From: Amoebophrya sp. A120
Taxonomy: Eukaryota > Protista > Dinoflagellata
DNA: 64,000 bases
Direction of reading: 5' to 3'
NCBI GenBank assembly: GCA_905178155.1
Contig: CAJINV010000009.1
Location: 855,415-919,414, forward strand
Both the position numbers and the translations under genes were made by a program. Below are positions 1,086-63,265 of the stretch, piece by piece. A model generated the notes under the pieces. It did no database searches and was not told where the DNA came from. It was given only the letters and a program-made list of their open reading frames with translations. Each line of letters opens with the position of its first letter. Position 1 is the stretch's first letter.

Positions 1086-2880
1086 CTAATAGGGCCGTCC
1101 TCTTGATGACGACAAACTTCCTCCCCTGCCCAGATTGTGCGGTTGGAACGAGCTGACACTCATCCGGGGATTATTAGTGCCCGACGTTGATGCCGATGCG
1201 CCCTGCTCCGGAAAGGTCGTGCTCTGTGTGGTTGCAAAACTGCTACTCATGCGGTGCAAGTTTTTTAGCCCCGGCGGAGCGCCCAGTGAAGGGAGCTCTG
1301 CAGCAGTGGCAGTTCGTCTTGGTGGACGGAATGCTAAAACGTGCATGTTCTGAACATTAGCAGGAGCGGACGAGTCGGTAACGTTTTCTTGCAAATCGGG
1401 AGAGATGTTGGTGGTCGGCTTGTCATCGTCCTGGTTTATTTCGATTCTTGCAATATCCGCGCTTCGTCCGTTGATGTTTTCATTTTCATTTTCTGGTAAT
1501 GGTAATGCGAGAAGCGCTTGCAGAGCCTTTCGGTTTCCGATGTCGAATAGGTTCTCCTTGCCGTCGAACATGTCTAGCAGTTTTTTCTTCGCATCCTCCG
1601 CAAACAGCACCGTGGAAAACACGCAGGTGTTGGGTGGGGCACAAAAACTACCTCTGTTCTTCAACATTGTCGCACTGGAAAATGATGTCGCGTTCGCTAC
1701 TTTTCCATGATTTTCACTGTCCCGCGCAGCTCCGCCAGCGGATCCCGCAGCCGAGATGGCGTTGTTCTTGTTCATCGATTCTCGGGAAGAGAACAAAGAG
1801 CCTTCTTTTTTCGTGTGCTCCGCGTACGCAAGCAGCCGCATCATTCCGTCGTTGTCCGGATTGTTCAAGGTCCTGCACCAGTGGACGTACGCCGGGCTTC
1901 GCTGCAGGATTCGCTCGAACGTGACGCCCTCGTGCTTCCCCCACGTACAGACTTCAAGCCCGCGGTTCGCGTCCGCAAAGGCCACAAGCCTTTCCACCTG
2001 GGGCTCATTCTGCTTGCCCTGAGCCACCTGCTGCCGGCAGTAGTCGATGTATCCGCCGTATCCAACAAAAAAACTGTGTTAGTGTGACTATCTTTGGCTG
2101 ACAGCATCACAAATTTGCTCTACATGTTGACAGGGAAAACCTGTCATGCTTCGTTGTAAGGGAAAGCACAGATGAAAAGAGGACTGCGTGGCTGTCTGGC
2201 ATGACGGGTGTAACTCTGTTGCATGTTCTGCATCACAGATTTACACTTACTTACACAGTTTTTTTCTTGCATACGCCGCACGTCTGCACGATCTGCGAGA
2301 ACAGCTTGCCGCGGTGCTGCCCGAACCCACACTGTTCGTCGGTATTTTTAGGCACAGCTGTGGCGTTTTCGCTATCGGTTGCTCCCGACGCGTTTGCTTC
2401 ATCGGCGGGAACCGTAACCGACGATCCGCATCTGGCTCCTGGCTTTTCATTCACTTCCTCCTGCTTCTTCACGCCAGGGTATTCTGCTGGCTGGAAATTC
2501 CTGTCGGCCAAAATGCGCTCCCGCCAGATGGGCACGTCGCGGGAAAGGGTGACGATCGTCGGTGCGCTCGCAGAAGAGAAGTTTCCGTGGTAACCGGCTG
2601 GAATAATCGAGATGTACGGGTGGAAAAATTTACAAGTCCCGTCCGCTGCGCCAGGGCAATGCCCGCCAGTCTGCATGTGCTTCCAACAGGTGCCGGGCCC
2701 GTGGTTTTTCTTTGCGTTGGAAACGAAGCTCTGCTTACGACTCGCCCAGGATTTCGTGCGGTCGGTCCAGGAACTGTTTGCCGATGCTGCGTTGGAACTT
2801 GCTTTGCCTTTACCTTTAGCGAAGGAGCTGGTACCAGCGCCGCCGCCGCGCCGACCACCTGCACCAACGCGAACTACCAT
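1086..2880 (-). CDS. CCCH-type zinc finger protein with two FGKHKG-type (ExoX-C/DUF3820-like) repeats; 2 exons, 220-nt introner intron
   Basis: ORFs 2251-2880 and 1086-2027 join in frame (IVQTCGGYIDYCRQQ) after removing 2059-2273 plus one CGCCG. Motifs: CWKHMQTGGHCPGAADGTCKFFHP, CGFGQHRGKLF, CTWGKHEGVTF. C-terminus RGRPY. Confidence 0.75.
2059..2273. mobile_element. Introner, family A; TSD CGCCG
   Basis: Ends TATCCAACAAAAAAACTGTGT / ACACAGTTTTTTTCTTGCATA. CGCCG at 2054-2058 and 2274-2278. Confidence 0.9.
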
Positions 2881-3768
2881 CTTCGGCAGACTGATCTGTT
2901 TCCTCGTTTATCAGGCAAAATCATGTACGAAAAGAAAAACTTTGTGGTTCATTTTGCTTATACTTCCCCTACTTCGGAAATTATAGAGCTCACTAAAATG
3001 AAACGAGTCGACAACGAAATTGATGAGGATCAATCGATGCTCGTGCCCGAGGCGAAGAAAATCCAATTTTCTCATCGATACTTTTTCGTCTTTTCCGGCG
3101 CAGCTCACCAACCCTTCACAGGCGTCGCTCATGTTTTTATGACGACTCGCTCTTTCTCCATGCATGCCTTCGCACAAGCCATCGAATCTTGATTCAAGTA
3201 ACAAGACAAACACGACACACACTTCAAGTCGAACTCTAGAGGAAAGCGCGCGGCTTTTTTCGTGTTCGATTCCTGCATCAAGCCCGCACTGTGGATTGAT
3301 GTTGCTGCTGCTAATTGCCGGGTGAAGCAATGGCATTCAGGCTAGCTGTACGGGTCTTCAGATTCATTGTACAGGACCGGTCTACATAGATCGCTTTTAT
3401 TTTTTTGTGGGGACAGCGACAGTAATTCATCCATAGGTTTACGCCTACGCATTCAGTGTGAAACGGGAGATTTATGTGCTAGGTTAACGTCAATGTGGAA
3501 CTTCGATAATTGATATAATAACGCTGACTTCATCCCGAAATGGATATGGAGGTGCTTGTGTGTAGAAATCTTCATGACAGGCGCTTTTCTAGTTGTATCG
3601 ACAATGCCGTGTAATGTAGATGATGACGTCAGGCTCAGGGTCAGCTTCCTTTAGGTATAGCGTTAGCTTTTCCAGCACGTTCACGTTGATGCAGCGTTCA
3701 CTTGTTTCATTCTGTCTATCGTTCCTTGCCAAGCGGGTATTTCATCTGCAACAAGTAAGAGATCATGA

Positions 3769-4623
3769 TCAATATGGTCGAGCACGCGACGGCGCGCCTC
3801 CACTAGTCCCGCCGAAATGGAAAGGACCGGCGGTGTTCTGGCCTATTGCGTCCAGCATGCGCGCAATCTGGGGGTCAAAGAAGTCCCGCCGCCCGTTGAA
3901 TATGTCGATCAGTTTTTCTTTTGCCTCGGCGGGTTTCAGATTACTGTAGAAAACAAGCCCACGAGCAGCACCACCGCTGCCAGAACTCCCTACTGGCATG
4001 GCAGCTGCCTCCGCGTCTGCGTATGCGATGAGTCGCTGCATGCCCTTGGTTGGGTTCTCGCACTTATTCTTGCACCAGTCAATGTAGCTCGGTGCGGTTT
4101 TCAAAATTTGCTCGAACGAAGTGCCCTTGTGCTTTCCGAAAGTGCACATCTCCAAGCCGCGGTTGGCGTCCGCGAAGGCGACCAGGCGACCCATGGCATT
4201 GTTGCTGCCCGACACGTTTTCCCGGCAGAAATCGACGTAATCGTGTTCGGATTTCACGATCTCGGAGAACAGCTTGCCTTTGTGTTTTCCAAAGCTACAC
4301 TCTTCGTCCTCAGGAGGCTCCTCTGTTTCATCCTCGGCTTGTTCTTCCTCGAGATCTCTGGGATTCATCTTGAACTGTTTATTCGCGAGGATCTTCGTAC
4401 GCCACTCCGGTACATCGTGGGACATCGTGATCTTCGTATCGGCCTTGGAATTATCGTCGCTGTTCATGGCCGTAACGGTCATGTAGGGGTGTTTGAAGGT
4501 GCACATACCTAACATCGGATCGCAACCACCTTCCATCTCTAGGTAGTCCCAGCACACGCCGACACCCTTGCTCTGCACACCTTCGGCGATGTAGCCCGCT
4601 TTCCACTCCTCGAAGCCGGACAT
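3769..4623 (-). CDS. Intronless paralog of the 1086-2880 gene (CCCH finger plus two FGKHKG repeats)
   Basis: Motifs CWDYLEMEGGCDPMLGMCTFKHP, CSFGKHKGKLFSEIV, CTFGKHKGTSF. Shares RLVAFADANRGLE with the paralog. Ends RARPY. Start taken at the ATG of MSGFEEW. Confidence 0.8.
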   Translation of the reverse strand: MSGFEEWKAGYIAEGVQSKGVGVCWDYLEMEGGCDPMLGMCTFKHPYMTVTAMNSDDNSKADTKITMSHDVPEWRTKILANKQFKMNPRDLEEEQAEDETEEPPEDEECSFGKHKGKLFSEIVKSEHDYVDFCRENVSGSNNAMGRLVAFADANRGLEMCTFGKHKGTSFEQILKTAPSYIDWCKNKCENPTKGMQRLIAYADAEAAAMPVGSSGSGGAARGLVFYSNLKPAEAKEKLIDIFNGRRDFFDPQIARMLDAIGQNTAGPFHFGGTSGGAPSRARPY

Positions 4624-5427
4624 TTTTGTCAGTAATGGCTGATAAATCGTCGAAATAGGACAAAATAAGATACGTCGTTGTAGTAACAAGGTTCGGGTTT
4701 ATCAAAGCGAATGCTTACTGTTAAGTTCTACAACTACAGGACGAATGTACTTTCTTATGTTTTTCTTTTTGCTTGGATGACGTTGATAAATCTCGACGTG
4801 ATTTCATCCGCTGCGAAAGAGAAAATCGAAGCGACAAGAATGCACTCGCTGGGTCGCGGCGACGATTTCTCTAATTCTGTCTCGACGTGGTCGTTTGTGT
4901 GATCAGGATCCTTTTTTTCATCAAGGGGAATAAAAACGAATCAGATCTTGTTCACGGGGGTGGTGAGAGACCACGATTACCATTTAGATGAAGCAAAACG
5001 ATACACCTTTCAATACATTCATAGTGCGTCGTCGTCAAGAGGCTAGAAGGTTTTTTAAGGTTTTCATCCCATCGGATTTCTTATCCTTGCAGTAGAAGCG
5101 AAGGACTTCATGAGGGAGCCCTACTTTTAGTTTTCTTTTACTATAGTCCGCCGTGATCTCTATCGCCGTTGCCGCATGCATCTTCAGCATCTCTCGACAA
5201 TAGAACATGTTCCCGACGGTTGTCGCCGTGCTGAGTACTATTGTACCAGCAGGAATTGCTTCTATCCGTATCTTCGCAAATAAGCTTGAATATGGCTTTG
5301 CTTTCCTTTCGAAGTAGAATGATATAAATGAATGGGCATGCCATTTGCATTTGGTGCGTTCCAGTTCCTGTTGCACTGATATAAAAAGGATCAAACTAGA
5401 TCATATCCCAACGCGCCTATGGATGAC

Positions 5428-5570
5428 GCAATCAGATCCCGAGGCACCACAAGATCCACGACAGCGCCAATCAGAAGATTCCGAGGCACACACAGATCCG
5501 AGCCACCACAAGATCCCCCCGCACCAATCAGATCCCGAGGCACCACAAGATCCAGGACAGCGCTGAGACT
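5428..5570. repeat. Short degenerate tandem repeat (CAATCAGATCCCGAGGCACCACAAGATCCA-like, about 3-4 copies)
   Basis: Copies near 5429, 5468, 5495 and 5525; overlaps the 3' end of the long ORF. Confidence 0.6.
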
Positions 5571-8500
5571 GAGAGTTCGTCATATTTGTCAATGTTGAAG
5601 CGCTGGCGGGCAATGTCCGAAGGCAGCTCTAAAGTCCACAACAGGCGATCGCGCAGCGTGCGCTTGCGTCGCGGCTGCCGCCACCAGGTAACGAACTTCC
5701 AGGGATAGATGTACTCGATGCCGGGACAGTCGTTCTCCTCATCTTGTCGCTTGTCTTTTTTGTTTCTCTTCGGGTTGTTCGTGTTTTTCACGATGAACTT
5801 GCGCCTATCCGGCAGTTCTTTTTGCTTGCGGAGCAACTCCTCGCTTCTCCCCATGCGGTGTTCCCAATTTTGATATCCAAGAGACAGCTTCTGCAGCCAT
5901 TTTCGCAGATGCTGCCGCCGCACTCTTCTCTGCCGGAAAATTTCGTCCTTTGACAAGCCCTTCGTGACCCAGGAATCGGGAACACGGTTCGCGCGGCGAA
6001 GGTTCAACTCGCCATACTGGAGATACTTTTCTTCTTTCAATTCTTTGAGAAACTCGATCGCACGCTCCTTGCGCTCCGCCAAAAAGTCCACTTCCAGCTG
6101 GATCTGGATTTTCTTAGATTCCTGTTCAGCCAATGCTCCTGCTCTTGGTGCAGTAGTAGCTGAAGCAATAGTTGCAGAAGTCGGATCTTTTTTCGTGCTA
6201 CCACCGTGTGTAGTTCTTGCGCTCCCGTGAATATCGCCGAGCGCTGGCACGTCAGCATCTCCGCTTTGGACGAGCACAGTGTCTGTTCCTTTCGATTGCT
6301 GCTTGTCCTCATTAGTGGCGCCACCAGCATCATCTCGAGCACCACGCTGGGACAGCTGCGGAACAATCGCGTCATGATCTGTATCTGGTTTGGCATCGTC
6401 CGGCATTTGGTCGTGAAATTGCGGGAGCCCGCCCACCTGTTTGATTTTGAGCAAGACGTTTTCCGCTTGCTCGACCTTCGACTTTGTCACGACCCCGGCA
6501 CGCCTCCTGTCCCCACCATTCAGCTCCAACAAATCTTGACGGTAGATTGCGAACGGGACGGTGCGCCCGTCGTTCCTGACATGCCGGGCGCCGAGCTTGC
6601 AGTGCAGCGGGCCGCCTTTTCCGCCTCCCTTTCTGCCTCTGTAATTTCCCCCACCAGCTGCCCGGTCGGAAGAAGCGGGGTTTTTGCGGGAAATGCGCTG
6701 CTTTACCAAATGGCAGGCTTTTATGGTCAGCTCTTTCCAATTGGAGGAGACTTTCGGCAGCTTCCGCATCGGACTCCTTGTCCCGCTCAGATCCCCTGCT
6801 CCAGAACTGGATGAAGACTCAACCAGCGCCGATTTGGCATGCGCAGCGACCTCGTCCTTCTGCTTGTCTCCGGAGGGTGCTCCAGCTAATGGAGGCGCTT
6901 TTCCTTTTCCTTTTCCGTTCGCCTTGGCACCATCCTCCCGGCGATTCGCGCTGTCCGTTTCTTCATCATCTTGCGTCTCACTTGTCTCACTTTCAGAGGA
7001 CTCCTCCGAGGCGACTTCGTCCACTGCTGACACTTCGACTTCCTCGTCGATCTCGCTATCGTCAGCGGAACTTCCATCATCTTCATCGCCAATCTCTGCC
7101 AACGTGAACGTCTCGTTTCTGAAATCAATAGACTTGGACAGGTGGTCGTATTTCTCTCGCCGCTTTTTCTGTTCCTCCTGCTCATCTTCCAGTGCAGCGC
7201 GCTTTTTTTGCTTTTCGTGGTCTCGCTTCTGCTGCAAGTGGAAAACGTCGGAGGACTCCCACTCGTACGTGAACTGTAACGGTTCGAAAATGAATCCGCG
7301 AGTGACATTTGCGAGGAGCCAAAAAGTTATGGCGTTCCAGATTTGTTCGCCGATCCTGTTGAAGCCGGTCATCGTTCGGAAAAACCAGAGAAGCAAGTCA
7401 CCGGCGGAGCCATTTTGCAGTCCGAGGTTGACCAGCCAATGCAAGACGGGACGCTGCAGCGACTCGAGTAACAGGAAGTACCAAAGGGGGAAAACGAAAA
7501 ACGCCGCAGGTACCCAGTACCAAAGCCAGTTAAGCGACGCCTCGACGGACCAGTCATAGGCACTCCTAGACTTCTGCTGCAACCAATCGAGGGCTTCTAG
7601 CTGTCTTTCCGATGGTGGTTCTTGCTGACATCCGCAAAGTGCGCGAATTTTGTTTGCCCAGAAATCGACCGTGCAGTATCTGTCGTAGACCCCGATGTAA
7701 ACCTGGAGGCGAATTCGGCACAGAACGGAAAAGAAAAGAACGCAGTGTAGTCCTATTTCAGCCAGCCAACAGCTAAGCGCGTCCGGGTAAACAAGTGCAC
7801 CAAGCGAAAAATAATCTACACTGTGACTTGTTGCAGTTTCAGCGTTCATCGCGAGTTCATCTCCAGCTCCGCCACCTCGTGCAGAAGCAGAAATCATCCC
7901 TGGAAAATAAATCGCGAACATGAGAAGGCTCTTCGCCTGTCCAAGGGACCACCAAAGAATGGACAAGATCACAGATGCTACAGCCAGGCGGGAGGTTGCC
8001 AGCAGCCATCGCACGCGGCCACGCTTCTTGATGAGGTTCCAGCGCCAGGTGAGATAAGGTTTGTCAAGAAACAGCGGAGCCATTTCGGTGTCGTCAACTA
8101 TTGCGCCATCTTCATACCGAATACTCGCGGCACACGCCGGCGTGAAGCGATAGAACCGAGCCCCGTCTTCCTCTTCCTCCTGTCTCTCGAGCCAGGATTC
8201 GCCCCGGTACGACGCAAGGCCCAACAGCTCGGAAAAGAAAGTATTGCGTTGCAGAAATCGCGCGAAGCGGAGTAGCCAGGATGGAGCTGGGCTGCAGCCG
8301 TTCGTGGTCGTTGAAGTTACATTTACTGCGATAGATTTTTCGTCGACCGAGATGCTTGCGACATTTCCGTTGCAACCAGGGGTGTCAACGATCGCTTCCT
8401 GATCTGGCGTACTTTCGTATTCGTTTTCTGCGTTGTTCCGCCCCTCTGCATTAGCAGTTCCATCTCCATTCGTCCGCGGAGGAGTAGCAGCATCCTCTGT

Positions 8501-8935
8501 AGCAACCTCCTGAACCTCGTCATCAGAGGCAGATGTGGTCGGGGTTTGCTGCAATTGCTCATCCGCTGGCTGTGCAATGCCTTCTCCGTCTTTTCCTTTT
8601 CCTTTAGCCTTGCCGCCTCCTCCACCCTTCTCGCGCGCCCCGACTGTTCGCGCGGTCGGCGTTTCCTCATTGCGTCTGCTACCTTTAGGTCCTTTGCCCT
8701 TCCCCTTAGCCCTCCCCCGGCTCACTTCCAGATCCCGCTCCTTTTCCTCCCGCCGAGCCTCGAGGTACTGCTGTTGGAATTTGGATCCCAAAAAATCCGC
8801 CGGCGGTCCGTCCTCTTTCACGCGGTTCAGGCAGTCGAAGAAGTCGGCGCGGCTCACTTGACTCAATGCGTCCAATTCAGCGTAGTAGTTTTTGGCGGCA
8901 TCCAAGAGCAAGGAAAAATCCTGAGCCAACTTCAA
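5528..8935 (-). CDS. Large multi-pass membrane hypothetical protein; 5' end probably extends upstream
   Basis: 1135-aa ORF with several hydrophobic segments and acidic/basic low-complexity tracts. The frame stays open upstream of the TTG (RYHFGQKLVREQLFGKVF). Confidence 0.65.
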   Translation of the reverse strand: MKLAQDFSLLLDAAKNYYAELDALSQVSRADFFDCLNRVKEDGPPADFLGSKFQQQYLEARREEKERDLEVSRGRAKGKGKGPKGSRRNEETPTARTVGAREKGGGGGKAKGKGKDGEGIAQPADEQLQQTPTTSASDDEVQEVATEDAATPPRTNGDGTANAEGRNNAENEYESTPDQEAIVDTPGCNGNVASISVDEKSIAVNVTSTTTNGCSPAPSWLLRFARFLQRNTFFSELLGLASYRGESWLERQEEEEDGARFYRFTPACAASIRYEDGAIVDDTEMAPLFLDKPYLTWRWNLIKKRGRVRWLLATSRLAVASVILSILWWSLGQAKSLLMFAIYFPGMISASARGGGAGDELAMNAETATSHSVDYFSLGALVYPDALSCWLAEIGLHCVLFFSVLCRIRLQVYIGVYDRYCTVDFWANKIRALCGCQQEPPSERQLEALDWLQQKSRSAYDWSVEASLNWLWYWVPAAFFVFPLWYFLLLESLQRPVLHWLVNLGLQNGSAGDLLLWFFRTMTGFNRIGEQIWNAITFWLLANVTRGFIFEPLQFTYEWESSDVFHLQQKRDHEKQKKRAALEDEQEEQKKRREKYDHLSKSIDFRNETFTLAEIGDEDDGSSADDSEIDEEVEVSAVDEVASEESSESETSETQDDEETDSANRREDGAKANGKGKGKAPPLAGAPSGDKQKDEVAAHAKSALVESSSSSGAGDLSGTRSPMRKLPKVSSNWKELTIKACHLVKQRISRKNPASSDRAAGGGNYRGRKGGGKGGPLHCKLGARHVRNDGRTVPFAIYRQDLLELNGGDRRRAGVVTKSKVEQAENVLLKIKQVGGLPQFHDQMPDDAKPDTDHDAIVPQLSQRGARDDAGGATNEDKQQSKGTDTVLVQSGDADVPALGDIHGSARTTHGGSTKKDPTSATIASATTAPRAGALAEQESKKIQIQLEVDFLAERKERAIEFLKELKEEKYLQYGELNLRRANRVPDSWVTKGLSKDEIFRQRRVRRQHLRKWLQKLSLGYQNWEHRMGRSEELLRKQKELPDRRKFIVKNTNNPKRNKKDKRQDEENDCPGIEYIYPWKFVTWWRQPRRKRTLRDRLLWTLELPSDIARQRFNIDKYDELSVSALSWILWCLGI

Positions 8936-9279
8936 AAAAAAACCACAGAAGGTTGCTCGGCTCGCGAAAACTTTTCCGAACAGCTGCTCGCGAACGAGCT
9001 TCTGGCCGAAATGGTACCTGGTGTTGCGAAGTAGGCCACGTTTGATTCACAAGTACGTACAACTCTTGTCGGCCTTTTCTTTCATTTTTGAGAAGCCGAA
9101 GCGATACCGAAGTTCATCTTCTGCGCCTCTTTTCTTTATTTGTATGCCTGTTCAGAAGATGAAGCTTAAGCCCAAGGCAGGGTCTAGAAGTGTTTTTGCC
9201 GAATCAATAGGAATAAGAAGAAGAACAAGCTCGCGGGAGCAGCGCAATATGGAACATATCAAGCATCAGCGAGTCTGAG

Positions 9280-10002
9280 TCATGTATTGTACCTAGCGTA
9301 GTCCTGCAGCCACTCGCAGTTGTAGTCAGCCTGTTCCAAAATGCCCCAAACATCTGGAAAGCCACACACCCGATGGCCCAAGAGGTGAAAATGAGGCTGG
9401 CACTTCCCACCCATGGTTGCAAAAATTTTGGAATTCCACTTGTGCTGCAACTTTTCCGGAAACAGAACCGGGATCGAAATCGCGACGCTAAAGGTGAGGC
9501 CGAGACACAGCCACTCGGTGCCCGTGTAAGAAGTGCTGGTCCTCCAACAGAGAATCAGCAGAGCCGGTGTGAACAACGTGAGGATCTGCAGTAGATGCCG
9601 GTAGGGTGCGAGAAAACTCAAGCGGGACGCAGTGTAGTCGCTTGTTCCGGGAAGCACGTTTTTGTTTCTAGCAATTTTTTCAGCGAATTCGGCGTCTGTC
9701 ACACTTCTGCTGTTGATGGCAGCGATCACATCGTCGCCTTTCAATATGCGCTGGTTTTGCTCTTGCGTTAAAACCACACGCCATGGTAGCAGATTTCTTT
9801 GAAGCGGAATCCAGATCGCGACGAGGAAAAGGAGGGCCCAAATCCCGAGGAGAATCGCTGTGAAAAGTCCGGGCGCTGCGACCTCTACTCCGCGCAACGC
9901 TGGAACAACGGACGCCGCGAGCAGGATTCCGCCTCTCTGATTCGCATTCCACCGCATCCGCATCGGTAACTGCATTTTATTTTCTTGTGTGCGTAAATGC
10001 AA
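9280..10002 (-). CDS. Membrane hypothetical protein; possibly the 5' exons of the 5528-8935 gene
   Basis: 240-aa ORF with 3-4 TM-like segments; the overlapping frame 9204-9422 continues hydrophobic sequence. Confidence 0.5.
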   Translation of the reverse strand: MHLRTQENKMQLPMRMRWNANQRGGILLAASVVPALRGVEVAAPGLFTAILLGIWALLFLVAIWIPLQRNLLPWRVVLTQEQNQRILKGDDVIAAINSRSVTDAEFAEKIARNKNVLPGTSDYTASRLSFLAPYRHLLQILTLFTPALLILCWRTSTSYTGTEWLCLGLTFSVAISIPVLFPEKLQHKWNSKIFATMGGKCQPHFHLLGHRVCGFPDVWGILEQADYNCEWLQDYARYNT

Positions 10003-11093
10003 ATTCTCTTAAACTGTTAAACTCAAACAATGACGTCTTGAAATAATAGGATTAGGTGCGAGGTCGAGAATCAAAAACAAAAAGGCATACGCCAAAAATA
10101 ATTGCATATGCATGCGAACGACGGGAAACACATCGAACGGAATGGGAATCTCACCCTGAGTAGGCCACATACACTGATCGTGGCTGTATCTTCAACATCA
10201 ACAGGAATCCACAGAATTAGGCATCCTCGTCCACATCCTGATCCTAAGATAGTAATTACTTTCTGAATCTGAAGTTCATCAGAGCCTACACACATGATTC
10301 AATGACGACACAATGCGCATAAATGAGTAACACAGGAGCGAGAAGAGCAGGCAAGGGCATTGATGTGGATCTTGTCGTGTCCGTCGTCGTTTGAGAAGAA
10401 AACGAACAAAAATAGATCCGAAAAATCGATCGTCATCTCCTGTATGCTTTTGCCAAGAGAAAACACGACTTTGTTCAGTTTGATCATTATTGGACAAGTA
10501 GCGAACAAATCAAAACCCATACCTACCTGAGCTCAACGCTGCGCGGCACATCGGAAATAACAAGCTTTTCGATTGTCTAGCTAAGGACCTCATCGCCAGG
10601 GAGGTTTTTCAGATTCTCTTCGTTTCGCAGGTGAAACCAGCAAGTTTTCTTTATACACAGAGTTCGCGACGAAAGTAGCAAGGCTTTTTTCTCATGCAAA
10701 CATACAAAAATTTCTTTTTTGTGTTTGTCAGACAGTAGACGTGATCGATGCTTTCGCGTTGTTTCGGAAGTTCAAAATTGTTTTAAACGTTCGGGCTGGT
10801 AAACATGCCGCGCAAAATTTGTCATCGTTTATCCGCCAATGAAGCGAAAGTCGAAGAAGTAGTGATGCTGATGCGCTCACTGCTCTATGGATTCTTTCTG
10901 GGGAGAAAGAGCTATCGTGTCTCTTGCCCCCATAATCGCATCAGCTACTACAACTCGTCATATTCGTCACTCCTACATCTTAATCAGTACTTTTATTCTC
11001 ATAGATGATACACAGTTATTTTTCACGATATAATCGATAGAAGTAGTACCACCTAGCATAAGTGCTAGTTCGCCTCGTGCTTCCACTTCGTCA

Positions 11094-14000
11094 TCACATC
11101 CCCATGTGGATGAGCTGCGAAGCATCTTTTCGAAGCTCCGCCTGCGTGCTCGAAATGAGGCTGTCCATGAGATTGTCGCTCGACTGTGCTGCAGCTCCTG
11201 CTCGTCCTCTCCCGTCGAGTGTGATTATCTCCGACGCCGTTTTCGTTCCACCCTTCGCGTTTTTGTTGGCGCACTTGTTTAGAATCACCTTCGGAACTCC
11301 GTACCAGTCAGGATGATGTTTGGTGTTGAGCAAAACTTGCTTTACGTTCTGCATCAGCGGCCATGCGGAGTGGTGTTCCTTGTGAAGCTCGTGGTGCACG
11401 AGGGCGCCTCCATTCGCGACTGCTGCGTCCATGTGTTTTTTCAGCCAAAAGTAGAACACCATCTGGCGCTGGTAGCGGGTGTACCCCTGCGCCAGGCCCA
11501 TTTTCGTCGCGGCGGTCAGGCGAGGTAGATTTTCCTGGTCCAGCTTCCGCTTGTTTTGCCCCAGAAAGCTCTTGCAGCCGTGGTCGGGGTCTCCGGTGCA
11601 AAAGTATCGTACTCGTAGTCGTTTTGCAATCATGCATGACAATCTTCTTAAGGTTAAGGTAAATCCGCATATACAAATTTTATTTGTCATGGTCATGCTG
11701 ACGCTGAGGAAATTTGTATATGCATTTAAGTATACGAGTACAATAATTTTGCAGTTCATACGGGGTAGAGGTACTTGTTCTGAAACTCCCGCATCGGCCA
11801 GTTCCAGTTCGCGACCGCGGATATTTTCGTGCCCACGTGCCCGCTGCGGTTCTGGAGGTCGGTGCACCGATCGAATTCGTTGATGACCAAGTGAAACTGG
11901 AAGCGTTTGAACACGTGGCAGGGCAGATAGTGCGCAACGTCGATGCCTGACGACGATGAACTTTCTTCATTCACATGGAACTCTTTGGGAACCAAGTCCC
12001 CGCGGACGTAGTCAAAGTCGTGGCCGCTCGGGTAGTCCTCGCGGTGGAAAACGTGCGGGATGGCAGTTTCCACCTTCTTCTGGTAATCCTCTTCTCGCAA
12101 TTCGCCGCTGGTCATGCTGTTCCCGAGGCCGATGTCGACCCAACCATCGCGCAACGTGCTGGGCTATCCTGTGCAAAAGTATCGTACTCGTAGTAATTGC
12201 TATGATCATGCATGACAAACATCCCTTTTTAGGGAAATCAGCATTACAAATTCCATTTTTCTTCTTGAAAAAATTTGTGATGCAATTTATACTAGTACGA
12301 TACTTACTTTTGCAATGCATATGGGCGACGTGCAGTCCTCGTTCTCGCTGCTGCCGGTACTGAGAGGAAAAATCCCCCCTCCCCATATTGAAAAGGCATG
12401 TTTCCAGGAAATTGCGTTGCGGATTTGAGGTCACAAATCACATCTGTCTTGCAAGAAGACAAGGGCAGAAGCTTCCGCCCCATTATGGAAGCGATTTGTC
12501 ATGCTGTTGGGCCTAAAGGGGGGCCGCTTGCCATGCTGCACTACTAGACCCATACGCCCCTACCTAGCCTGGGGATCTGGCCGCAGTGCCTTTGTGCAAT
12601 ACAAAGCTGATTTGTGGTCACAAATCAGCATCACAAATTTTCGTTTTGATATGGGGAGGGGGGATTTTTCATTTTGATAGCCGGGAAGGCAGTGGTGGTT
12701 CTTCCACTGAACCGAAGGGCGGAGGTGGTCTAGGAAGCCATAGCTGCCGCAACTCGACATGTGCACGTGCACTGGCTTGGTGCCGTCAGTGGCGGCCTCT
12801 TGCCCGTGTTTCGAACCTGATGAATCTTCATCGTCGCTCTTCAATACATATTGCGAGTACAGGCTCCAGCGCTGGACGAACTGGCACCCTCCGCTGTGCC
12901 CTGCGACAAAAATCTCGCTCGCGAGATTCGTTTTGCGCAGCGTGTTATGCATTGCAAAAGTGTATCGCGATCGCACTACTAGAAATAGATCAGAAATTTG
13001 TCCAGAAGACAAAATTGAATTCCTATATGCTGATTTACCTGAGAGTCGAGATGAAATGTCTATGCACAGATGCAATTTATACGAGCACGAAACTTTTGCA
13101 ATGCATACGTGTTCACGATCTCGTCCAGAACCCGGAAACTAGACAAATTTTCATTGCTGTCTTGCAAATCTTGGTTCGTGCTCTCGTACCCGCGTTGCGA
13201 CAGGTAGGTCGTGTCGGCCTTCCAGTACAGATGGGTCTTGGAAACCAAATTTCGGAAAAACGGGACCACGACCGCCACGTCGTGCAGCTGCCTGTCCTTG
13301 TGCAAAAACCCCGCCCAGCCATTGCAGGTGTCGTGAACGTAGCCGCCGAGCGTGGGGTGCCAGGTGCTGGCATGCCAATACTCGCTGATCACGATGACCA
13401 CCGGCCGCGGCGCGGTGCGCTGCAAAGTGAAATCGTCTCCGTTGACGAAATCGGGGAGGTGGGGGAGATTGGTGAACGCGGTGAAGTCCTTGTGCAAATT
13501 TCTGATGTTCGCCATCTTCTGGGGCCGACAGTAGTGCGGCAGGGGGCCTGCTACTGGTTTGGAGTAGTGAGAGTGATCTGTATTTCGATTTCCGCTGTGG
13601 TGATGATTTTTGTGGTTGGCTTTCTGCGGAGGGCCGACGGAGGGCGCGATGGGCGCGCCAGCCGGAGTGCCATCGCCATCAATGTGCGTGATTGCAGGAT
13701 CTGAGTCCTTGCCGAGGATTGTGGACGATGAAGATGAAGATGATGATGAACCAGCGCTGCCAGACGAGGGCACATCGACGACGCCGGGCCTGGGAACCAC
13801 GTCAGTCGCACTCAGCGGTCGTATATCCAAAGTCTCGTCTCCGAATGCAGCGGGTCCTGTTGTCGATTCGTAAAAGAACGGGGGGATTTCTGGGACATCA
13901 GAAGATGAATCTGTGTCGAGTTCTTGGCTACTTTCGTCAGCAACTATGCCCATGTCAACATCCTCCGGCCCGTCCTCGTCGATAGTGCTCACTGAATCAT

Positions 14001-14745
14001 CTTCGTCCCCTATGAAAACACCCACACCCGCCTCCACTGGTCCGTTATCCGATTCTGCCGGGGGAAGCGGGCGAATATCGTTTGCGCTGGTGCTGTGGTC
14101 GTATCCGTGCGGAAAAAGCTCTGGGGCGTTGGGAAGATATTTCGCCCAGGCAGGAATCGGGATGTAGTTCCGGTCTACGTAGTCGATATCCAATTCCCCC
14201 GTCGCAAGCTCCTCTCGAATGTAGACGGCCCTGGCATCCAGAGGTCCTTGTTCGTTGGAGGTACCGTCTGCAACGACTTGGGTCTCGCTGGACTTGATAT
14301 GGCGGTTGTTCTGCAGCGTCAGGGGCGTTACAACAAAACCGCCTAGCACCGTCGCCGCACCGAGCACCCCGAGACTGCGGAGGGCAAGCTTTTTTCTCTT
14401 CTGCGACAGGCGGAGGGTTGCTGCGGCATTGTGCACAGCTGACGTTTCGTTTGTGACGTTCCAAGAATCCGTCGCTGGCGCAATGAGACCCTGTAAGGTG
14501 GCATCCTGGTGTAGTTGGGGTGGGAGGTCGTTTACAAAAGGTGGGCCCCCGCGTTCAAGTGCTGTTGCAGCAAAGTAGGGCGGAGAATCGTTCTTGCGTC
14601 CGGAAGTAGACCTGCCGGCGGTCGTGGAGATGCTGAGCTTTGTGGCGGAAGCAAGCAACGCATTTGATTGGGTACACTGGTGCAGCACAAAGGCGCTCGA
14701 GAGCTTCCACACCACGAGGAGACGCAACGATTTGGGCACGAACAT
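11094..14745 (-). CDS. Secreted/membrane alpha/beta-hydrolase-fold protein; 5 exons, 4 introner introns
   Basis: Removing four elements gives continuous sequence: SSFRVLDEIVNTLRKTNLASEIFVAGHSGGCQFVQRW (GHSxG nucleophile elbow) ... HHCLPGSSENEDCTSPSTLRDGW ... NKYLYPDHGCKSF ... HHSAW. N-terminal hydrophobic signal. Confidence 0.8.
11590..11760. mobile_element. Introner, family B; TSD CGGGG
   Basis: TIR core TGCAAAAGTATCGTACTCGTA / TACGAGTACAATAATTTTGCA. Left terminus TCT instead of TAT. CGGGG at 11585-11589 and 11761-11765. Confidence 0.85.
12165..12321. mobile_element. Introner, family B; TSD TGGGC
   Basis: TATCCTGTGCAAAAGT...ACTTTTGCAATGCATA. TGGGC at 12160-12164 and 12322-12326. Confidence 0.9.
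12358..12679. mobile_element. Introner, family G; TSD GCCGG
   Basis: Perfect 22-bp subterminal IR GAAAAATCCCCCCTCCCCATAT. Left terminus TAC, right terminus ATA. GCCGG at 12353-12357 and 12680-12684. Confidence 0.85.
12946..13107. mobile_element. Introner, family B; TSD CGTGT
   Basis: TIR TATGCATTGCAAAAG / CTTTTGCAATGCATA. CGTGT at 12941-12945 and 13108-13112. Confidence 0.92.
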
Positions 14746-15458
14746 CTTGCTGGTATTGATATTCTTGAGTCGGGACTTCGTCGTTGCGTGGTGGGCGGTA
14801 TTAACCGAGGGGTTGCAGGTGGAATTGCAAACCTGACTCGGCTGGACGAGGACGAGCTTGCATTTGCTATAATTGCTAAGGGGCAGAAATAAATACTCTT
14901 ATCAAAAATACGCAATGACCGATGGCGACGCCTGCCGTTGCAGTCACACACAACAAAGCGAGCAAAGCAACAACGTCCACGAGGAGAGGAAAGCAGGAGC
15001 TCAACACTTCTCCACATCGACTGGTTTTTGATTCATTTTGAGTATGATCTATTATGTTGTTTCTAGCAAATTTGTTTTCTGGTAGTTCGTTGGTGCGTAG
15101 ATCAAAATGACCATAGTGTTGTGTTCGTCCACGTCAACGTCGATCACAAGTCGGGGCGCCCTAAATAAAGGGCACATGATGATAGATGAAGGGGCTTCTT
15201 ACATTGATATTGATGTATTGAAATTGACTTTCCACATTTTTGGGTGGGAGTGTGTGTTAAGCTTCAAGGACAACAACACGCGCGTCAGCATGCCACCGTA
15301 TTTTTTCTCGCAAAATGTACCATAATAAGGTTCAAGAATTCCTCCACGACGAGCACAGCCCACAAGATTTCTACCTCGAGCCACATCAAGTTGCCAGACT
15401 TGTGAAAGTAGAGCTGATTTGTTCAATCTTCACACGACCGCACACGGTTCCATCATAT

Positions 15459-56991: not shown

Positions 56992-59900
56992 TTACCCCAG
57001 GAGCTCTTCCTGGCCAAGGCCGGAGACGCCGTTATATGGAGAAGGCGGTGATTCAGAGCCTAGCCTAGGCACCAGCAACTCAGGCGTCGGGACACGGTTC
57101 AACCTAGCAACCTGGTCCTGGTTCTGTGTCGGCGAAGATGGCGCACGCAAAAACTGCGCGTCTTCTTCGTGCAAGCGCTGCTCTTCAGGAAGGAGGTCAC
57201 GAATCAGGTGGCTCGTCTGCCCGCCTGAGCGAGGCTTGTTGCTTCGGCGATCGTGTGGCTGGGATGTAGTCACGATCGTGAACCCGGAAGCGTTATAGCC
57301 CGACACTGCATCAGAAGCAGCAGTGGCACGCGGCGGAGACGACCGGTTCTTGCGAGCGGCGGAACTGTGGATGTTGTGATTTCCGTTTTCAGATTTTCTC
57401 TTTTTATCGGCGCGCTCGCTAGAGAATTTATTCAATTGGCGAGCTGGCCTCCCGCTTCATCAGCCAGGTACTATATTTAGCGAAAATATAATTGCAAGAC
57501 TCGAGTACGTTGCCGCGCTCCCGGGCGGACTAAATCCGGTAGGCAAGCTTGCGCGGATCGGCTGGTAAGTAGAAGCGTTTGCATTGATTTGCGACTTAGG
57601 GACGGGGCCGGGTCGGGGTACCACTTCAAGCCTGCCGATCGGACGCGGATGTCTATCCGTCGCTGAAGTAGTGTGCGCTTCATCGAGGTTATCGTCCAGT
57701 ACTTCCTCTTCGTCTTCAATTTGTGAGGGTTTCCGAGGCCGAGAGTGCGACGGTGGGGTGAGGCGGTAATTTAGGTATTCGGCCGGCGCTGCGCCGCTAG
57801 GACTTGGTCGAACAACTTTATCCCTCTGATATTCGTGCGGCCGCTTGCGCCGCAAAAATTTATTGAGCGCGGGGAGCACATCGACCTTGTTTTGATAGTT
57901 TTGTTTCATGCGAATGCCTGATACATCAAAAATCTTTGTGCATGATCATCCATCGGAAGATTTATAAAACATGCCTAGGGAGGCTTACACAGTTCCGAAT
58001 GATCTTTTTATATGGTACCATCCACTCGACGTCGTTATGCTTCTTCCCCAAGATTTTCTTGAAGCTCGTCATTTTTGCGTCTCGTTCGGATTTTCTTTTG
58101 CTCCTCGACCGCAGCCACCGGTCGTCCTGCTCTGCGTCATCGTCTACGGGAGGACGAAGCTCCTTGTACAGCCGTCCTGCGTTCTGCGATATGTCGATCA
58201 CATCATCCTCATCTCCGTGCAGAATGCAGACGGGAACTTGGTCTCGACAAGCTTGAAGGCTCTTCGCGTTGTCCCAGTGTGTGTCGTCGAAAGATATCAT
58301 GCCCCCAAAGGGAAACCCAGCGGCAGCGGTTTCGACCGAGTAGAACGGCGACTGGAGAATCACCTGCGTCGTGCCATGCATTTTGATTAGCCTTCTGCTG
58401 TGTAAGCAACACGTCAAGGCTCAATGGAAAGCCCGAGCGGAAAGCGATTCAGCATCAACAGGGAGCAACTGCAACTTGCATATCAGCATCACAAACATCG
58501 CGAATACCGCGTGGAACGGATCCTGTCCCGAACCGTAAAGGCCCGCCAGCCGCGACGCTGGCCCAGTGCCGATGCTGCGTCCGTAGAGAATTACGTCGCT
58601 ATTTTTGGTGAATTGCTTGACTCGCTTCACGTATTCGTACGCCGCATAGACCACCGCGTCCACAACAGTGCACGAACAATGAAGAAGCGGTAAACTGTCA
58701 GCTCGATTTCCTGAGGATGATGACGCGGACGTGCTTGTGCCTGTAGTGGAAAAATTGATCTGGTCGCCACTTGCAGCAGCTGCACTCTGCCCTAGTTGGC
58801 CTGCTTCCACGCTGGATTTTGAGATCGCGCCGCACTCCATTAGGTACTGCCGCAGCATGTATTCCCGTCGCACTCTCTCGATTTCGCGACCATAAATGAC
58901 AGGATACTTTCCTTGTGCAGCTGCACCCGGAGTGGGGCCAGCAGTTGAGGCGGCCGCGGAACTTGTCCCACCTCCCCCACCGGGCGTCACGGTGCCTGCG
59001 GCGCTACTGGTTTCTACCTCCTGGAAGAAGCCGAACACATTGTTCGAATTCACGGACTCGCGCAACTGCAGGTCGAGCTCCGCTTGCGAAAATACGGAGA
59101 TCGGGGGCTTTGTGCCGGTCGTTCGCACCGCTGGTGTCGGGGTGGGCGTGTCGTCTACGACTCCGTAACGAAATGACGGCTGCGGTCGCGGTTGCTGCCG
59201 AAGATGCTCTGACGAGAAGGTAGTTGCTGTTGCAGGCTCTTCTTTCAATCGCCGTCGCCGTTCGTCATCCTTTTGCTCCTGTCGAGTTCTTGTTTTCGCG
59301 GGGGGCACCATTTTTGCGAGAGAAGGATCCACGCCACCCCAGCCACCTGGCCCTGTCTCCGGACGAATAATATCTTCCTCTCGAATCTCATCGTCAGGAA
59401 AGAGGATGCTTTTACGCCCTTGAGAAGGCGTAGGGGAGCTGCTACTTCCGCCTGTGCCATCTTTCTGCAACGTGAAGCTGCTCGAGGAGGAGCTCGATGC
59501 GGAGAAAAACTCTTTCATCGCAGCCTGTCGCTGCGCGGCCATTGTGCTGCCTTCATGAAGATCAACATGCTGCTTATTTTCCTCTAGCAGAGCTTGTTCG
59601 TAATGCTCGTTATCGAAAATGCGCTCAAATGGTGAAGCATTTGCTTCGTGTTCCCCTGGTGATCCCTGACTGCTGCCCTTGACCCGTAATTTTTTGATGT
59701 CTTGCTCCGCTCGGCTGCGACGCGAGGTGGATATAGGGGAAGAGGAAGACACCAGGCCGAGTTCACGAGCATCCTCTTGCAGTACTTCCCTGTCCCGTTT
59801 AAGCAGTTCCATTCGTTCCAGGAACTCCTCCTCGGTGCAGTTGCAGTACCGTTTGAAGATGCCATACCCGGGGTATTCCACCATGCAGACAGAAACGCCA

Positions 59901-60226
59901 AGACTTCGCATCAGCCGGTGACCGAGGACCTCCACCTGCCCCAGGTCCTCCCCGTTTGCGTGCATGTAGATGACGCACCGGCGCCGGTAGCTACCGCTGC
60001 AATCGTGGAACACCGAACCGGGTACGTAAAACCCGGAATCCGGGGGTTTCGGGGTCTCCTGCTGCTCGGCCAGGTGGTACTCCGCCGGGTTGTAGTATTT
60101 CGCGTAGTCCAAATACAGCACCGGTGTGCCCCACGGGGTCAGCTCCAGCCCGGTGGAAGGCACCCGCCCGCTGTCCACCCGGGGGAACAGAAACTGAGTC
60201 GCCACGCTTTGGCCCATCTTGAACAC
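56992..60226 (-). CDS. ABHD17-like alpha/beta hydrolase with a very long low-complexity insertion
   Basis: Motifs VIYMHANGEDLG, VEYPGYG, ILYGRSIGTGPA, VILQSP (via GT-AG intron 58364-58507), ILHGDEDDVI, KHND. The 3' exons are uncertain. Confidence 0.85.
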
Positions 60227-60528
60227 AACTCAGCTTCCGATGAGCCCCTGTCGCTGCCACGGGTTGTATTGAGGCGGATGATACTAACTTAGCGAGGAGG
60301 CTACACGCCTCAACTGTAATCACTCTGACTCCAATTCCAACGGACACGGAGGAAGACACTTCTAGAAAGATTTCGTAGTGATTCTACATGTGGAGACCAC
60401 TTGCGCAACGACTTCTGATGTGAAAATGAATATATATTAAGCAACGTAATTCTCACTTACGAAAGACACACAGAGCGGAAGCAAGGAACAGCAACGGAAG
60501 CAGATCTGCGCTTTCCCTCCGTGAAGAC

Positions 60529-63265
60529 TATAGGCTCTCGGAAATTCATGTGAGAGTCCATTTCTGAAAATTTAAAATTCGCAAACTTCGAAACCCTCTG
60601 CGAATCTTATAACACGCGCCCAAAACCCGGCCCCGGCGAACCCCATTCAGCTTCCAAAGTCAACAAGGCCCCGAAAAGGGGGCTTCGAGAACTCTGAAAG
60701 GTACGCGCCGTTTTTCTTCCAGAACTCTGGAGCTTCTCTTTTGTGGACTTCGAACAAGCCGGCCCTCGATCCGGAGCCGCTTGATCCCCGAACGCCGAGG
60801 TTGGCTCCATTGCCTAGTCCATGAGGTGCCACCACGGCTTTGAGGTTCCGAAGCCAACAAATTCGACACACATGAATTTCTCAGGCTCTGAAAGAAAAAC
60901 GGCGTCTTTCTTTCAGAGCCTGAGAAATTCATGTGTGTAAATGTTGAGCCAATCCCCTTCCATCAAAAGGGCGGCTGGTCGCCGGCCGTCTGGGCTGGCT
61001 TGATTGCCAGCTCCGGATCACGGCGGCCAAAGGTTCAATCTTTTCAAGTAATCAAATCTGACACACATGAATTTCTCAGGCTCTAAAAGAAAAACGGCGC
61101 TTTTCTTTTAGAGCCTGAGAAATTCAAGTGTGTAAATGCCTTTCGCCGGCCCCCGGCTGGTGAAAATCCCCATTGGTAACTGAAACATTTTTCAGCTACC
61201 AATGGGGATTTTCACCACTCGGTGAGTGGCGAAAGCGCTTTCGCCACTCACCGAGTGGCGAAAATCCCCATTGGTAACTGAAAAGCTTTTCAGTTACCAA
61301 TGAGGATTTTCACCTCTAGGTGAGAGGCGACAGCGCTTTCGCCTCTCACCTAGAGGTGAAAATGCCCATTGTAAACTGAAAATCTATTCGCCACTGACGA
61401 AGGCGACTCCTCCTGGTGGAAATTAATTCAAGTGTGAAAATTTGTTGGGGCTGTTATTGGTCTCGAAAAACGAGTCGCTTTCAGCACTCTTTTTTTTGCT
61501 ACCCCCGATGGGTAACAATTCAAGTGTGAAAATTTAAAAGAGTCACTGGAACGACTCACTGCAATGACTCTTTCAATAGAGTCTCAACTATTTCTCTTCA
61601 TAATTAAATTTACGCACTTGAATTTACTGTCTTTTAAATTTACGCACTTGAATTTGTTGCCAATGGCAATAAATTCAAGTGCGTAAATTTAAAAGACTCC
61701 TTCGAAGGAGTCCTTGCAAGGAGTCCCTGCCTGGACTCATTGCAAGGTGTAGCCGGAAGAGTCGAACGCAAATCCAAAACGAAAACGATTCATCCCCAAC
61801 AATTTGCACTAGCGCCAGCAGATGTCCCAACTACCTCCTCCCCCAACCCCCGCTACCTCCCCTGGGGCCCGAGCCTTCTCCTTCCCAACCCGGACCACCT
61901 CCTCTACAAGTTCAGCCGCCTACTCCCGGAGCCAGGTCTTCTCCTGTGGGCCCCGGCCCCCTTCACGCGGAACCCAGACCACTTCTTCCACAGCCCAAGC
62001 GCCCTCATCCGGAGCCTGGACCCCCTCCTTCCAAACCTCCGCCACATTCTTCGGAACCCAGGCGCCCCTCGTCCCAACCCGGAAACGGCCCCGGCCCTCC
62101 CGCTGCTTTCTTCTAAATGGCCAGACCCGAGGCGCTTCAGCTTTGAAGGCAAAGCCCATCGCCCCCTTCTGAGCTGAGGCCGCTCAACCCTTGCAGACCT
62201 ACCTGCCCCAGAGGCCGAAGCGGGAGGAGCCTGCCTATGCTGGCATCCACGTGGGGCCGTGTCATTTGTCTCGCCTCGAGCCACCTCGCAGTCGGGGGCG
62301 GGTTTTACAAAAATGGCCGGAGTTGAGGCGCTTCACTTCACGAAGGGCAACCAGCTTGCCGAACCACGGCGAAGGCGCTCAGCTTTGTTGGCTTTGCTTG
62401 TCCACGGCCCGAAACCTCTTGCGCCCTGGCCTATGCGAAGCCGGGCGCGGACCTAATGCCCTTCCTTTTCCGAGCTGGCCCTAGCGTGGCGCCACATCGA
62501 CGACGACTTAAAACACCCCACAAGAGAATGCCTGGAGGGCGCCGGAAGGAGGGCTCGGGCAGCCACCTTCCGGCAAAGCCTTGCAGCTACACACCGCGAG
62601 GGGACCACAGAGCGCACCCCCTGAAAACCGGAGCCGGGCCCCTCACTATTCAGAACATGCCCTAAAGTGGTTCGCAACGCACTCCACTCAGCTGGTTTCT
62701 TAGCCACAATCTTCATAGTGCCAGTGCCGATCGTGAATGCTTGCCGTCTGTAGAGGTGTCGCTCTGCCACTCAGAGGGGCGAACTACAGACGCTCCCGGC
62801 GGCCAGAACCCCTATGCCCTGCCCCCAAATCGCGGCCCCCGATGGCCGACAAAACCGCCGAAAACCGAAAACACGCAGAGCCACCAAACTGAGCCGAAAC
62901 ACCTAAGACCGAGAAACACAAGCCGGCGACCAGTGCAACTGCTCCAGTTTTTTCTTCGGGCAAAGGCCCCAACGTGGGCGGCAGGCCTGTGCCCGGGCGA
63001 CGACCACAACAGAGCAGGATGCCAGGAGTGAGGTCATAACCCAGAGGGCCGAAGCGCTTAACGTGCGAAATAAAAAGCGCGGCGCCGGCGCTGCCGTCGC
63101 TACTTCTTGCAGAACTGTAGCGGTTCGACTCTGGCAGCAGCTCCGTGGCTGGGCAACTTGCACAAGCAAAGGAGGCGCGCAATGTTTTGCCATTGGCGCT
63201 ATTCGAAAACTGCGAAATTTAAATTTTCGAACATGGTACTAGACATGAATTTCTCTGAGCCCATA
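60529..63265. mobile_element. 2.7-kb non-autonomous TIR element (family H); TSD AAGAC; intergenic
   Basis: ~60-bp imperfect TIRs: TATAGGCTCTCGGAAATTCATGT... / ...ACATGAATTTCTCTGAGCCCATA. AAGAC at 60524-60528 and 63266-63270. Confidence 0.88.

Follow-up and report, generated by a model that had tools for sequence, protein, structure and literature searches.

We found that the introners in a 64,000-nucleotide stretch of Amoebophrya sp. A120 DNA (contig CAJINV010000009.1, positions 855,415 to 919,414; hereafter the window) follow a single terminal code, whichever sequence family they belong to: terminal inverted repeats (TIRs) that nearly always start with TAT and end with ATA and, flush with these ends, a direct repeat of 5 bp. 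These elements are probably non-autonomous introners of the miniature inverted-repeat transposable element (MITE) kind, in which the 5-bp repeat is a target site duplication (TSD), and they are probably mobilised in trans by DDE transposases of a single lineage that is related to integrases and acts with a 5-nucleotide (nt) stagger. The elements and their TAT start have already been published, and the feature is in that respect largely known; what is new here is the uniform length of the duplication, a wider end consensus together with an internal motif, the lack of GT/AG co-option and a named clade where the missing enzyme can be sought. The host is Amoebophrya sp. A120, as an exon of the S10 peptidase gene of the window is 100% identical to A120 protein P0001, and an exon of the gene at 40753-45274 is likewise 100% identical to A120 protein P0122.

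Terminal repeats and duplications in the window

Elements were gathered by a scripted search and by reading through the full window. Seventeen TIR elements lie within 2059-63265; all 17 end in ATA and 15 start with TAT, the other two starting with TCT (at 11590) and TAC (at 12358). This agrees with the first-pass annotation, made from the letters of the window, which had described about 18 elements with mostly TAT starts and ATA ends throughout. Adjacent repeats were perfect at 5 bp in 11/17 elements, and all 11 perfect repeats named in that annotation, AAGAC included, are in place; at 2, 3, 4, 6, 7 and 8 bp the corresponding counts were 2, 1, 0, 0, 0 and 0 of 17. The other six elements carry imperfect 5-bp repeats, matching at 4/5 letters at 17622, 31691, 31974 and 41181, at 3/5 at 32432 and at 2/5 at 42338. 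Nine occurrences of a strict pattern (TAT..ATA, perfect 5-bp repeat and a TIR of at least 14/20) were counted in the window; in 100 Markov-2 resamples the mean was 0.01 and the maximum 1. Sixteen elements break minus-strand reading frames, which are closed by removal of the element plus 5 nt (removal of the element plus 2 or plus 8 nt also keeps the frame). BLAST groups the 15 short elements into 8 clusters, and a 2.7-kb element represents a ninth type. The elements are as follows, with the intron of a hydrolase gene, which lies outside the class proper, given last.

2059-2273, host gene on the minus strand: introner TAT..ATA, TSD CGCCG, cluster 2; junction 2053/2274 in X4 record 16
11590-11760: introner TCT..ATA, TSD CGGGG, cluster 0; absent from X3 record 14 and X4 record 20, present in X1 record 3
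12165-12321: introner TAT..ATA, TSD TGGGC, cluster 0; absent from likely-RNA contigs, folds with ends paired (z -4.6)
12358-12679: introner TAC..ATA, TSD GCCGG, cluster 8; absent from likely-RNA contigs
12946-13107: introner TAT..ATA, TSD CGTGT, cluster 0; absent from likely-RNA contigs
17622-17863: S10 peptidase introner, TSD TTCCA/TTCCG, cluster 5; P0001 lacks element plus 5 nt
18213-18477: S10 peptidase introner, TSD GTTCT, cluster 1; P0001 junction WYTHKNGL, hairpin (z -8.6)
21290-21601: introner, TSD CCGGA, cluster 6; removal with 5 nt restores the frame
21681-21906: introner, TSD ACGTG, cluster 5; reading frame only
27549-31470: 3.9-kb element with cluster-6-type ends, TSD AACTG; removal with 5 nt restores the frame, no transposase domain
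31691-31939: introner, TSD CGTCT/CGTCC, cluster 1; reading frame only
31974-32235: introner, TSD ACGGC/GCGGC, singleton cluster; reading frame only
32432-32589: introner, repeat 3/5 (CAACA/ACACA), cluster 0; reading frame only
41181-41380: introner, TSD AACCA/AAACA, cluster 0; P0122 lacks element plus 5 nt
41533-41751: introner, TSD TGCGC, cluster 2; P0122 junction VQVVRAHS
42338-42508: introner, repeat decayed to 2/5, singleton cluster; P0122 lacks element plus 5 nt
60529-63265: intergenic 2.7-kb TAT..ATA element, TSD AAGAC, TIR of about 60 nt, internal hairpin arrays; no transposase domain
58364-58507, minus strand: hydrolase intron, canonical GT...AG starting G-TAT; removal gives DPFHA/VILQSPF

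The code in a second assembly

In order to assess how general the code is, we used a second data set of metagenome contigs scanned with the TIR of one family, which gave 147 loci from one other assembly. Merged, these amount to 408 kb, a small share of a genome which may be that of A120 or of another strain, and have nothing but elements in common with the window. Family 0 is over-represented by design in this set, the remaining families being its neighbours. Among 145 anchored family-0 elements, 96 have perfect 5-bp repeats and 34 more match at 4/5 letters, while the other repeat lengths gave 0-14 perfect cases each (2/145 at 4 bp, 0/145 at 6 bp). A scan blind to both terminus and repeat length returned 269 cases at 5 bp, 226 of which are TAT..ATA; the listed cases of at least 6 bp are mostly palindromes within TIRs or the same elements taken one base in, and for 3 and 4 bp the scan covers the leading classes. 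Calling elements of every family gave 368 (285 with perfect repeats, 83 with 4/5), compared with 3, 4 and 7 in three resamples. Nine of the calls in these loci exceed 450 bp; of these, about six seem to be ends paired by chance. Partner ends are TAT in 274/295, the commonest variant being TGT (8 of the other 21). Clustering the 368 together with the 15 short window elements gave 23 clusters, 10 of which have at least three members, and about 10 families follow the rule of a 5-bp repeat flush with fixed TAT/ATA ends.

The elements are also repeated in the genome, as 137 and 103 contigs of X1 stop exactly at 12165 and 12679, respectively, with unrelated flanks. Nearest-neighbour identity among 349 elements has a median of 86%, and just 10 reach at least 95%, a figure which applies to the small share of the genome sampled. 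A scan of viral contigs with two TIR patterns gave 0 and 0 matches.

End consensus and internal motif

The families share more than their outermost letters. A family-weighted end profile extends the consensus past TAT to a G or C at position 4, six looser bases and a run of A at positions 11-15, and the ends of both window and locus elements match the published form of the A120 inverted repeat, namely a TAT start with an A-run after seven bases. Moreover, an internal motif, GCATNACARAT, occurs in 1004 copies in 374 elements and is carried by 92-100% of members in 12/13 clusters; in the window, 27/33 matches to it fall inside elements, where 1.7 would be expected. Hidden Markov models built from interiors only match 22-207 members of other families, against 0 in shuffled sequence and 0-1 of 72 intergenic pieces. 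The first-pass annotation had spoken of about 8 unrelated families; the families are, however, not wholly unrelated, since they have two codes in common, the ends and the motif, although their interiors cannot be aligned.

The motif occurs about equally on both strands (189 sense against 201 antisense of 236). Because it is strand-symmetric, GCATNACARAT is likely to be a DNA-binding site. A role as a sense-strand branch point is not supported, as there is no strand bias and the motif is absent in sense from the spliced element at 12946.

Removal from transcripts and proteins

Four sequencing runs were compared over window positions 1500-15800. The contigs of X3 and X4, which come from one sample, are likely to derive from RNA: their depth drops close to zero between genes, while that of X1 is flat at about 46, as for DNA. 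In X4 record 16, position 2053 abuts 2274 with zero letters between, the gap of 220 nt corresponding to the element plus 5 nt. In X3 record 14 and X4 record 20 the interval from 11584 to 13108 is spanned by 691 letters, compared with 1523 in the window, and the missing 832 nt equal four elements (812 nt) plus 4 x 5 nt. At these five checked sites, therefore, the elements are absent from likely-RNA contigs together with one copy of the repeat, 5 nt being lost with each.

Annotated A120 proteins show the same loss of element plus 5 nt at five further elements, two in P0001 and three in P0122. The S10 peptidase motif, which the first-pass annotation described as restored in this way, is indeed restored, as seen at the P0001 junctions at 17622 and 18213. 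At 17622 the first base of the upstream repeat copy is retained, giving AWRKF, which aligns with homologues, and the S10 junctions are gap-free against 23 homologues (WYTHKNGL at 18213). For the gene in which a C2 domain had been proposed, P0122 confirms removal with 5 nt at three elements, but Pfam finds no C2 domain in the exons or in the 845-residue protein. The hydrolase, put forward as a further case, does not fully belong to the class: its intron at 58364-58507 has a single TAT-like end, no TIR and no 5-bp repeat. This intron holds a motif-like sequence, and it may be an old introner turned canonical.

Evidence beyond reading frame is thus available at 10/16 genic elements, in every one of which 5 nt leave with the element, while the other six were assigned by reading frame alone. 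Removal of the element plus 2 nt, which also keeps the frame, is excluded at all 10 junctions with RNA-contig or protein evidence. The annotated protein P0121 is a single-exon call and carries no information on 27549-32589. Across the 408-kb loci, removal with 5 nt yields a coding-like frame at 202/359 junctions, as against 79-94 for removal with 3, 4, 6 or 7 nt. Removal of the element plus 5 nt restores the coding sequence as it was before insertion. Neither of the observations that the first-pass annotation had named as damaging to its proposal, heterogeneous TSD lengths and termini or transcripts retaining the elements, was made in the loci, the likely-RNA contigs or the annotated proteins.

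Target site, fold and cut register

The base profile of the target site is flat in the loci, with no preference, and both insertion orientations occur. The repeat is not enriched for splice dinucleotides, with G at position 5 in 59/196 and AG at positions 3-4 in 22/196, so that the target site supplies neither GT nor AG and there is no co-option.

Two elements, those at 12165 and 18213, fold as RNA with their ends paired. In the hairpin at 18213 the TIR is paired through its last base, and both TSD copies lie unpaired beside the stem. Decayed repeats bear on where the cut falls: proteins keep at least one upstream letter at 17622, at least three at 41181 and one to four at 42338, and if one register holds for all three, the cut should follow three or four upstream letters. 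If it follows four letters, TAT(G/C) would make up positions +2 to +5 of the donor and +1 would be unconstrained, which we regard as a lead.

The published annotation of A120 families 1, 2 and 18 has NT at the 5' border in 892/1322, 6681/9716 and 383/540 introns, and AN at the 3' border in 864/1322, 6598/9716 and 375/540, respectively. This excess fits T..A ends lying one base inside the annotated border, but we do not take it as evidence of the true register, since the pattern would be identical if the aligner had shifted junctions to gain partial GT..AG matches.

Long elements and their cargo

The element at 27549-31470 is a cluster-6-type short element which has taken up three cargo segments of about 1.4, 1.0 and 1.0 kb (about 3.5 kb in total), rich in hairpins and tandem repeats. 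The segments are separated by four copies of a direct repeat of about 40 nt which includes the GCATGACA motif, and the cargo has no match in the 408-kb loci. The 2.7-kb element at 60529-63265, the interior of which contains long-hairpin arrays and 98-bp repeats, likewise has no match in these loci and may be what remains of a larger autonomous element.

Three locus elements (L003:505-1608, L015:5524-6338 and L050:1561-2313) appear to be short elements with cargo at or beside a GCATGA/TCATG motif, around which L050 has an 18-nt duplication. L015 resembles the published families 38 and 196 in size and TIR length. The placement of cargo in these three may be due to template switching during gap repair or to the motif acting as a hot spot.

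Other features of the window

Every recognised gene of the window is on the minus strand. At 1086-4698 there is an adjacent pair of paralogous genes with ExoX-like C-terminal motifs, just one of which contains an introner. Exons of about 30-35 nt remain between neighbouring introners at 31940-31973 and 12322-12357, and X1 contigs from elsewhere have 20-35 letters separating element ends. The gene encoding P0122 has a further intron of 1.19 kb at 43061-44371, which resembles the published families 103 and 135 in size. One of its ends is TAT, while the partner TIR has decayed; the intron is flanked by two copies of a 59-nt coding repeat, both of which P0122 retains as a 20-residue tandem duplication. 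In the S10 peptidase gene, a canonical GT-AG intron at 15834-17180 is filled by a 156-bp repeat arrayed in tandem 7.6 times, the copies being 96% alike. The GCAGG repeat near 17960-18170 was considered as an intron and rejected, as it is coding in P0001.

Proposed mobilisation and splicing of the elements

Staggered-cut integration by a DDE enzyme leaves a characteristic trace, a duplication of fixed length and without sequence preference that directly adjoins the TIRs (PMC6839031). The 5-bp repeat has these properties, and the elements were therefore probably inserted in this way. A DDE transposase related to integrases would cut the target with a 5-nt stagger and insert the element, the 5-bp duplication being the result. 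As the end consensus and GCATNACARAT are common to the families, one transposase lineage would act in trans on about 10 of them through these shared signals. The integrase clade is suggested both by the TA..TA ends, as in IS3EU and GingerRoot elements, and by A120 family 38, an approximately 810-bp TIR DNA element with near-identical copies and a Copia/Gypsy-like open reading frame (ORF) with integrase-region homology, which several other families are said to resemble (PMC12130899). Dataset sd07 of that study records family 38 as '5-bp TSD, TA/TA Termini' under the label Ginger, though the ends are not those of Ginger. The first-pass annotation had proposed a single transposase with a 5-nt stagger; the single end code and the fixed 5-nt duplication in the window and in 368 insertions agree with this, while the enzyme itself was not found and is inferred.

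Several observations weigh against a single integrase-type lineage. Pfam finds no transposase or integrase domain in 46 window ORFs, in 89 short ORFs taken from six long elements or in 115 of the 356 locus ORFs of at least 150 residues, and no autonomous partner with matching ends was found in the 64-kb window or among the 115 longer ORFs from the loci. The authors of PMC7789003 also found no A120 transposase and rejected mobilisation by one. The three genuine long elements of the loci consist of a short element plus cargo, and the Copia-like ORF of family 38 could therefore be cargo too. No described superfamily fits fully, as the TSD of IS3EU and GingerRoot is 6 bp and Ginger ends are TG..CA. 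With the internal motif masked, the models match only 1-12 members of other families, which does not support common descent of the interiors, and the 2.7-kb element at 60529-63265 has the end code without a CAT[GCT]ACA motif. The TSD lengths called automatically for A120 families in PMC12130899 vary between 2 and 11, and only 6 of the 36 rows that have a value give 5 bp: over 58 A120 rows the TSD is 5 in 6, 4 in 9, 2 in 14, 3 in 4, 6 in 2, 11 in 1 and none in 22 (the TSD-length column was identified by our own reading, and 58/58 A120 and 30/60 A25 rows were covered). As to removal and its register, the RNA status of X3 and X4 is guessed and refers to a single sample, and a raw RNA run, X9, gave 0 reads and is uninformative; mismatch polarity in the loci is 24 against 18, and variant ends number 5 at the sense 5' end against 9 at the sense 3' end (p 0.42).

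One alternative, which we consider unlikely, is copy-and-paste via RNA, in which the excised intron would be reverse-transcribed and inserted by the integrase of a resident Copia-type long terminal repeat (LTR) retrotransposon, likewise producing 5-bp duplications. Most LTR elements give 5-bp TSDs and TA..TA resembles LTR ends (PMC6839031); copies of A120 family 3 have rve, RVT_2 and Ty1 RNase H matches (PMC12130899); copy-and-paste was preferred in PMC7789003; and TGT is the commonest variant end in our data. The elements have TIRs instead of LTRs, however, and the mobile unit stops at TAT/ATA, while the removed intron includes five extra letters of the old site which should travel with it and do not. 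The intergenic element, moreover, shows identical ends. This last point also bears on a reading to which we give similarly little weight, that several transposases are at work and that the uniform ends result from a filter at splicing, TAT..ATA hairpins with a 5-nt repeat being the only ones accepted within exons. Such a filter would agree with interiors that are unalignable once the motif is masked, with loss of the first T at 0 sense 5' ends against 4 sense 3' ends (small numbers) and with four lopsided window cases, all of which retain TAT at the sense 5' end. Nevertheless, the code is also present in the intergenic element, the two ends are conserved to an equal degree irrespective of gene orientation, and the filter is not strict, as A120 introns are also formed by family 65 (Mutator, GG/CC ends, 8-9-bp TSD) and by families 26 and 71, which have GT donors (PMC12130899). 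Family 65 also shows that the one code claimed in the first-pass annotation, which holds in the window and the loci, does not extend to every A120 introner.

Less probable still is that the mobiliser has been lost from A120, or that it is an undescribed or highly diverged DDE transposase which does not belong to the integrase clade. Homology-based searches found none, and few of the sampled elements are nearly identical to their nearest neighbour, as would fit this view. Against it stand the TA..TA ends, which are a hallmark of IS3EU and GingerRoot, the near-identical copies and integrase-region homology of family 38 (PMC12130899) and 97 identical A120 introner pairs (PMC7789003). One integrase-related lineage acting in trans on MITE-like elements remains the explanation that we favour.

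With regard to splicing, the TIR hairpin would bring the two repeat copies together, and the spliceosome of A120, which is without U1 (PMC7789003), would cut at one register within the repeat. A bolder proposal, put forward tentatively and as doubtful, is that most of the tens of thousands of non-canonical introns of A120 come from one undescribed lineage of integrase-type transposons, marked by TAT..ATA ends, a 5-bp TSD and shared GCATNACARAT boxes, and that the U1-less spliceosome has adapted so as to read the transposon end as donor (N/TAT(G/C), with +1 free) and finds the acceptor through the TIR hairpin and the duplicated 5-mer, without AG. If true, an element could insert in either orientation and in any sequence context and be removed without a scar. 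Both the spread and the splicing of A120 introns are left open in PMC7789003, and the fixed 5-bp duplication seen in hundreds of insertions again suggests an integrase or transposase that makes a staggered cut, narrowing the search for the enzyme to TA..TA, integrase-related elements. Apparently random splice dinucleotides would reduce to one rule, removal of the element and one copy of the 5-mer. The register can then be tested directly wherever the repeat has decayed, and gene models would be corrected.

Comparison with known systems

The introners described in PMC7789003 are the elements studied here, in the same organism: non-canonical introns that bear inverted and direct repeats at their ends. 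That study counts 1954 A120 families, gives the inverted repeats as TAT, seven looser bases and at least three A, terms the elements a novel type and puts the direct repeats at 3-5 nt, with neither length nor position constant, although the example in its Fig. S19 has 5-bp repeats. In contrast, the repeat here is 5 bp and flush with TAT/ATA across families. The passages of PMC7789003 searched make no mention of the internal motif or of a link to IS3 or Ginger. PMC12130899 treats A120 introners as diverse (LTR, non-LTR and TIR), with most superfamilies Unknown and, in the parts available to us, no single code. In the literature searched we found no account uniting A120 families under one 5-bp code or describing the motif, though figures S19-S25 of PMC7789003 may show part of it.

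Like MITEs, the elements have TIRs and a TSD of fixed length and are short, non-coding and present in many copies. The first-pass annotation could name no superfamily for them; none fits fully, but IS3EU/GingerRoot comes near, sharing TA..TA termini, TIRs and the absence of a target nucleotide preference (PMC10045372, PMC6839031). GingerRoot elements also carry captured fragments. IS3EU and GingerRoot differ in being kilobase elements which encode an integrase-related transposase and in having a TSD of usually 6 bp, a length at which 0/145 locus and 0/17 window elements are perfect, and the passages of the two papers do not describe them as introners. Among Ginger2/TDD elements, TDD-4 and TDD-5, whose transposase is integrase-like, produce TSDs of 5 bp, a length that matches ours; the group has TGTNR termini and mostly 4-bp TSDs at AT-rich sites (PMC2836005), whereas partner ends here are mostly TAT, with just 8 TGT. 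IS481EU (TNT..AYA, TSD near 4, 15 or 25 bp) does not agree either: the left end fits TNT but the elements end in ATA, and 2/145 are perfect at 4 bp, in a scan of lengths up to 12. An LTR retrotransposon does not agree with inverted repeats and the lack of coding capacity (primer-binding sites were not searched).

As introns, the elements resemble the MITE-derived introners of Micromonas, which are TIR elements removed from mRNA (PMC11282704). In Micromonas, however, one splice site is the element's own and the other comes from the TSD, while here the TSD gives neither GT nor AG. Nonconventional introns of euglenids are also hairpin-bounded, with TSD-like repeats and non-canonical junctions (PMC11282704). 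The class described here works like a TIR transposon of the integrase clade, yet is filed in none of IS3EU, GingerRoot or Ginger2/TDD.

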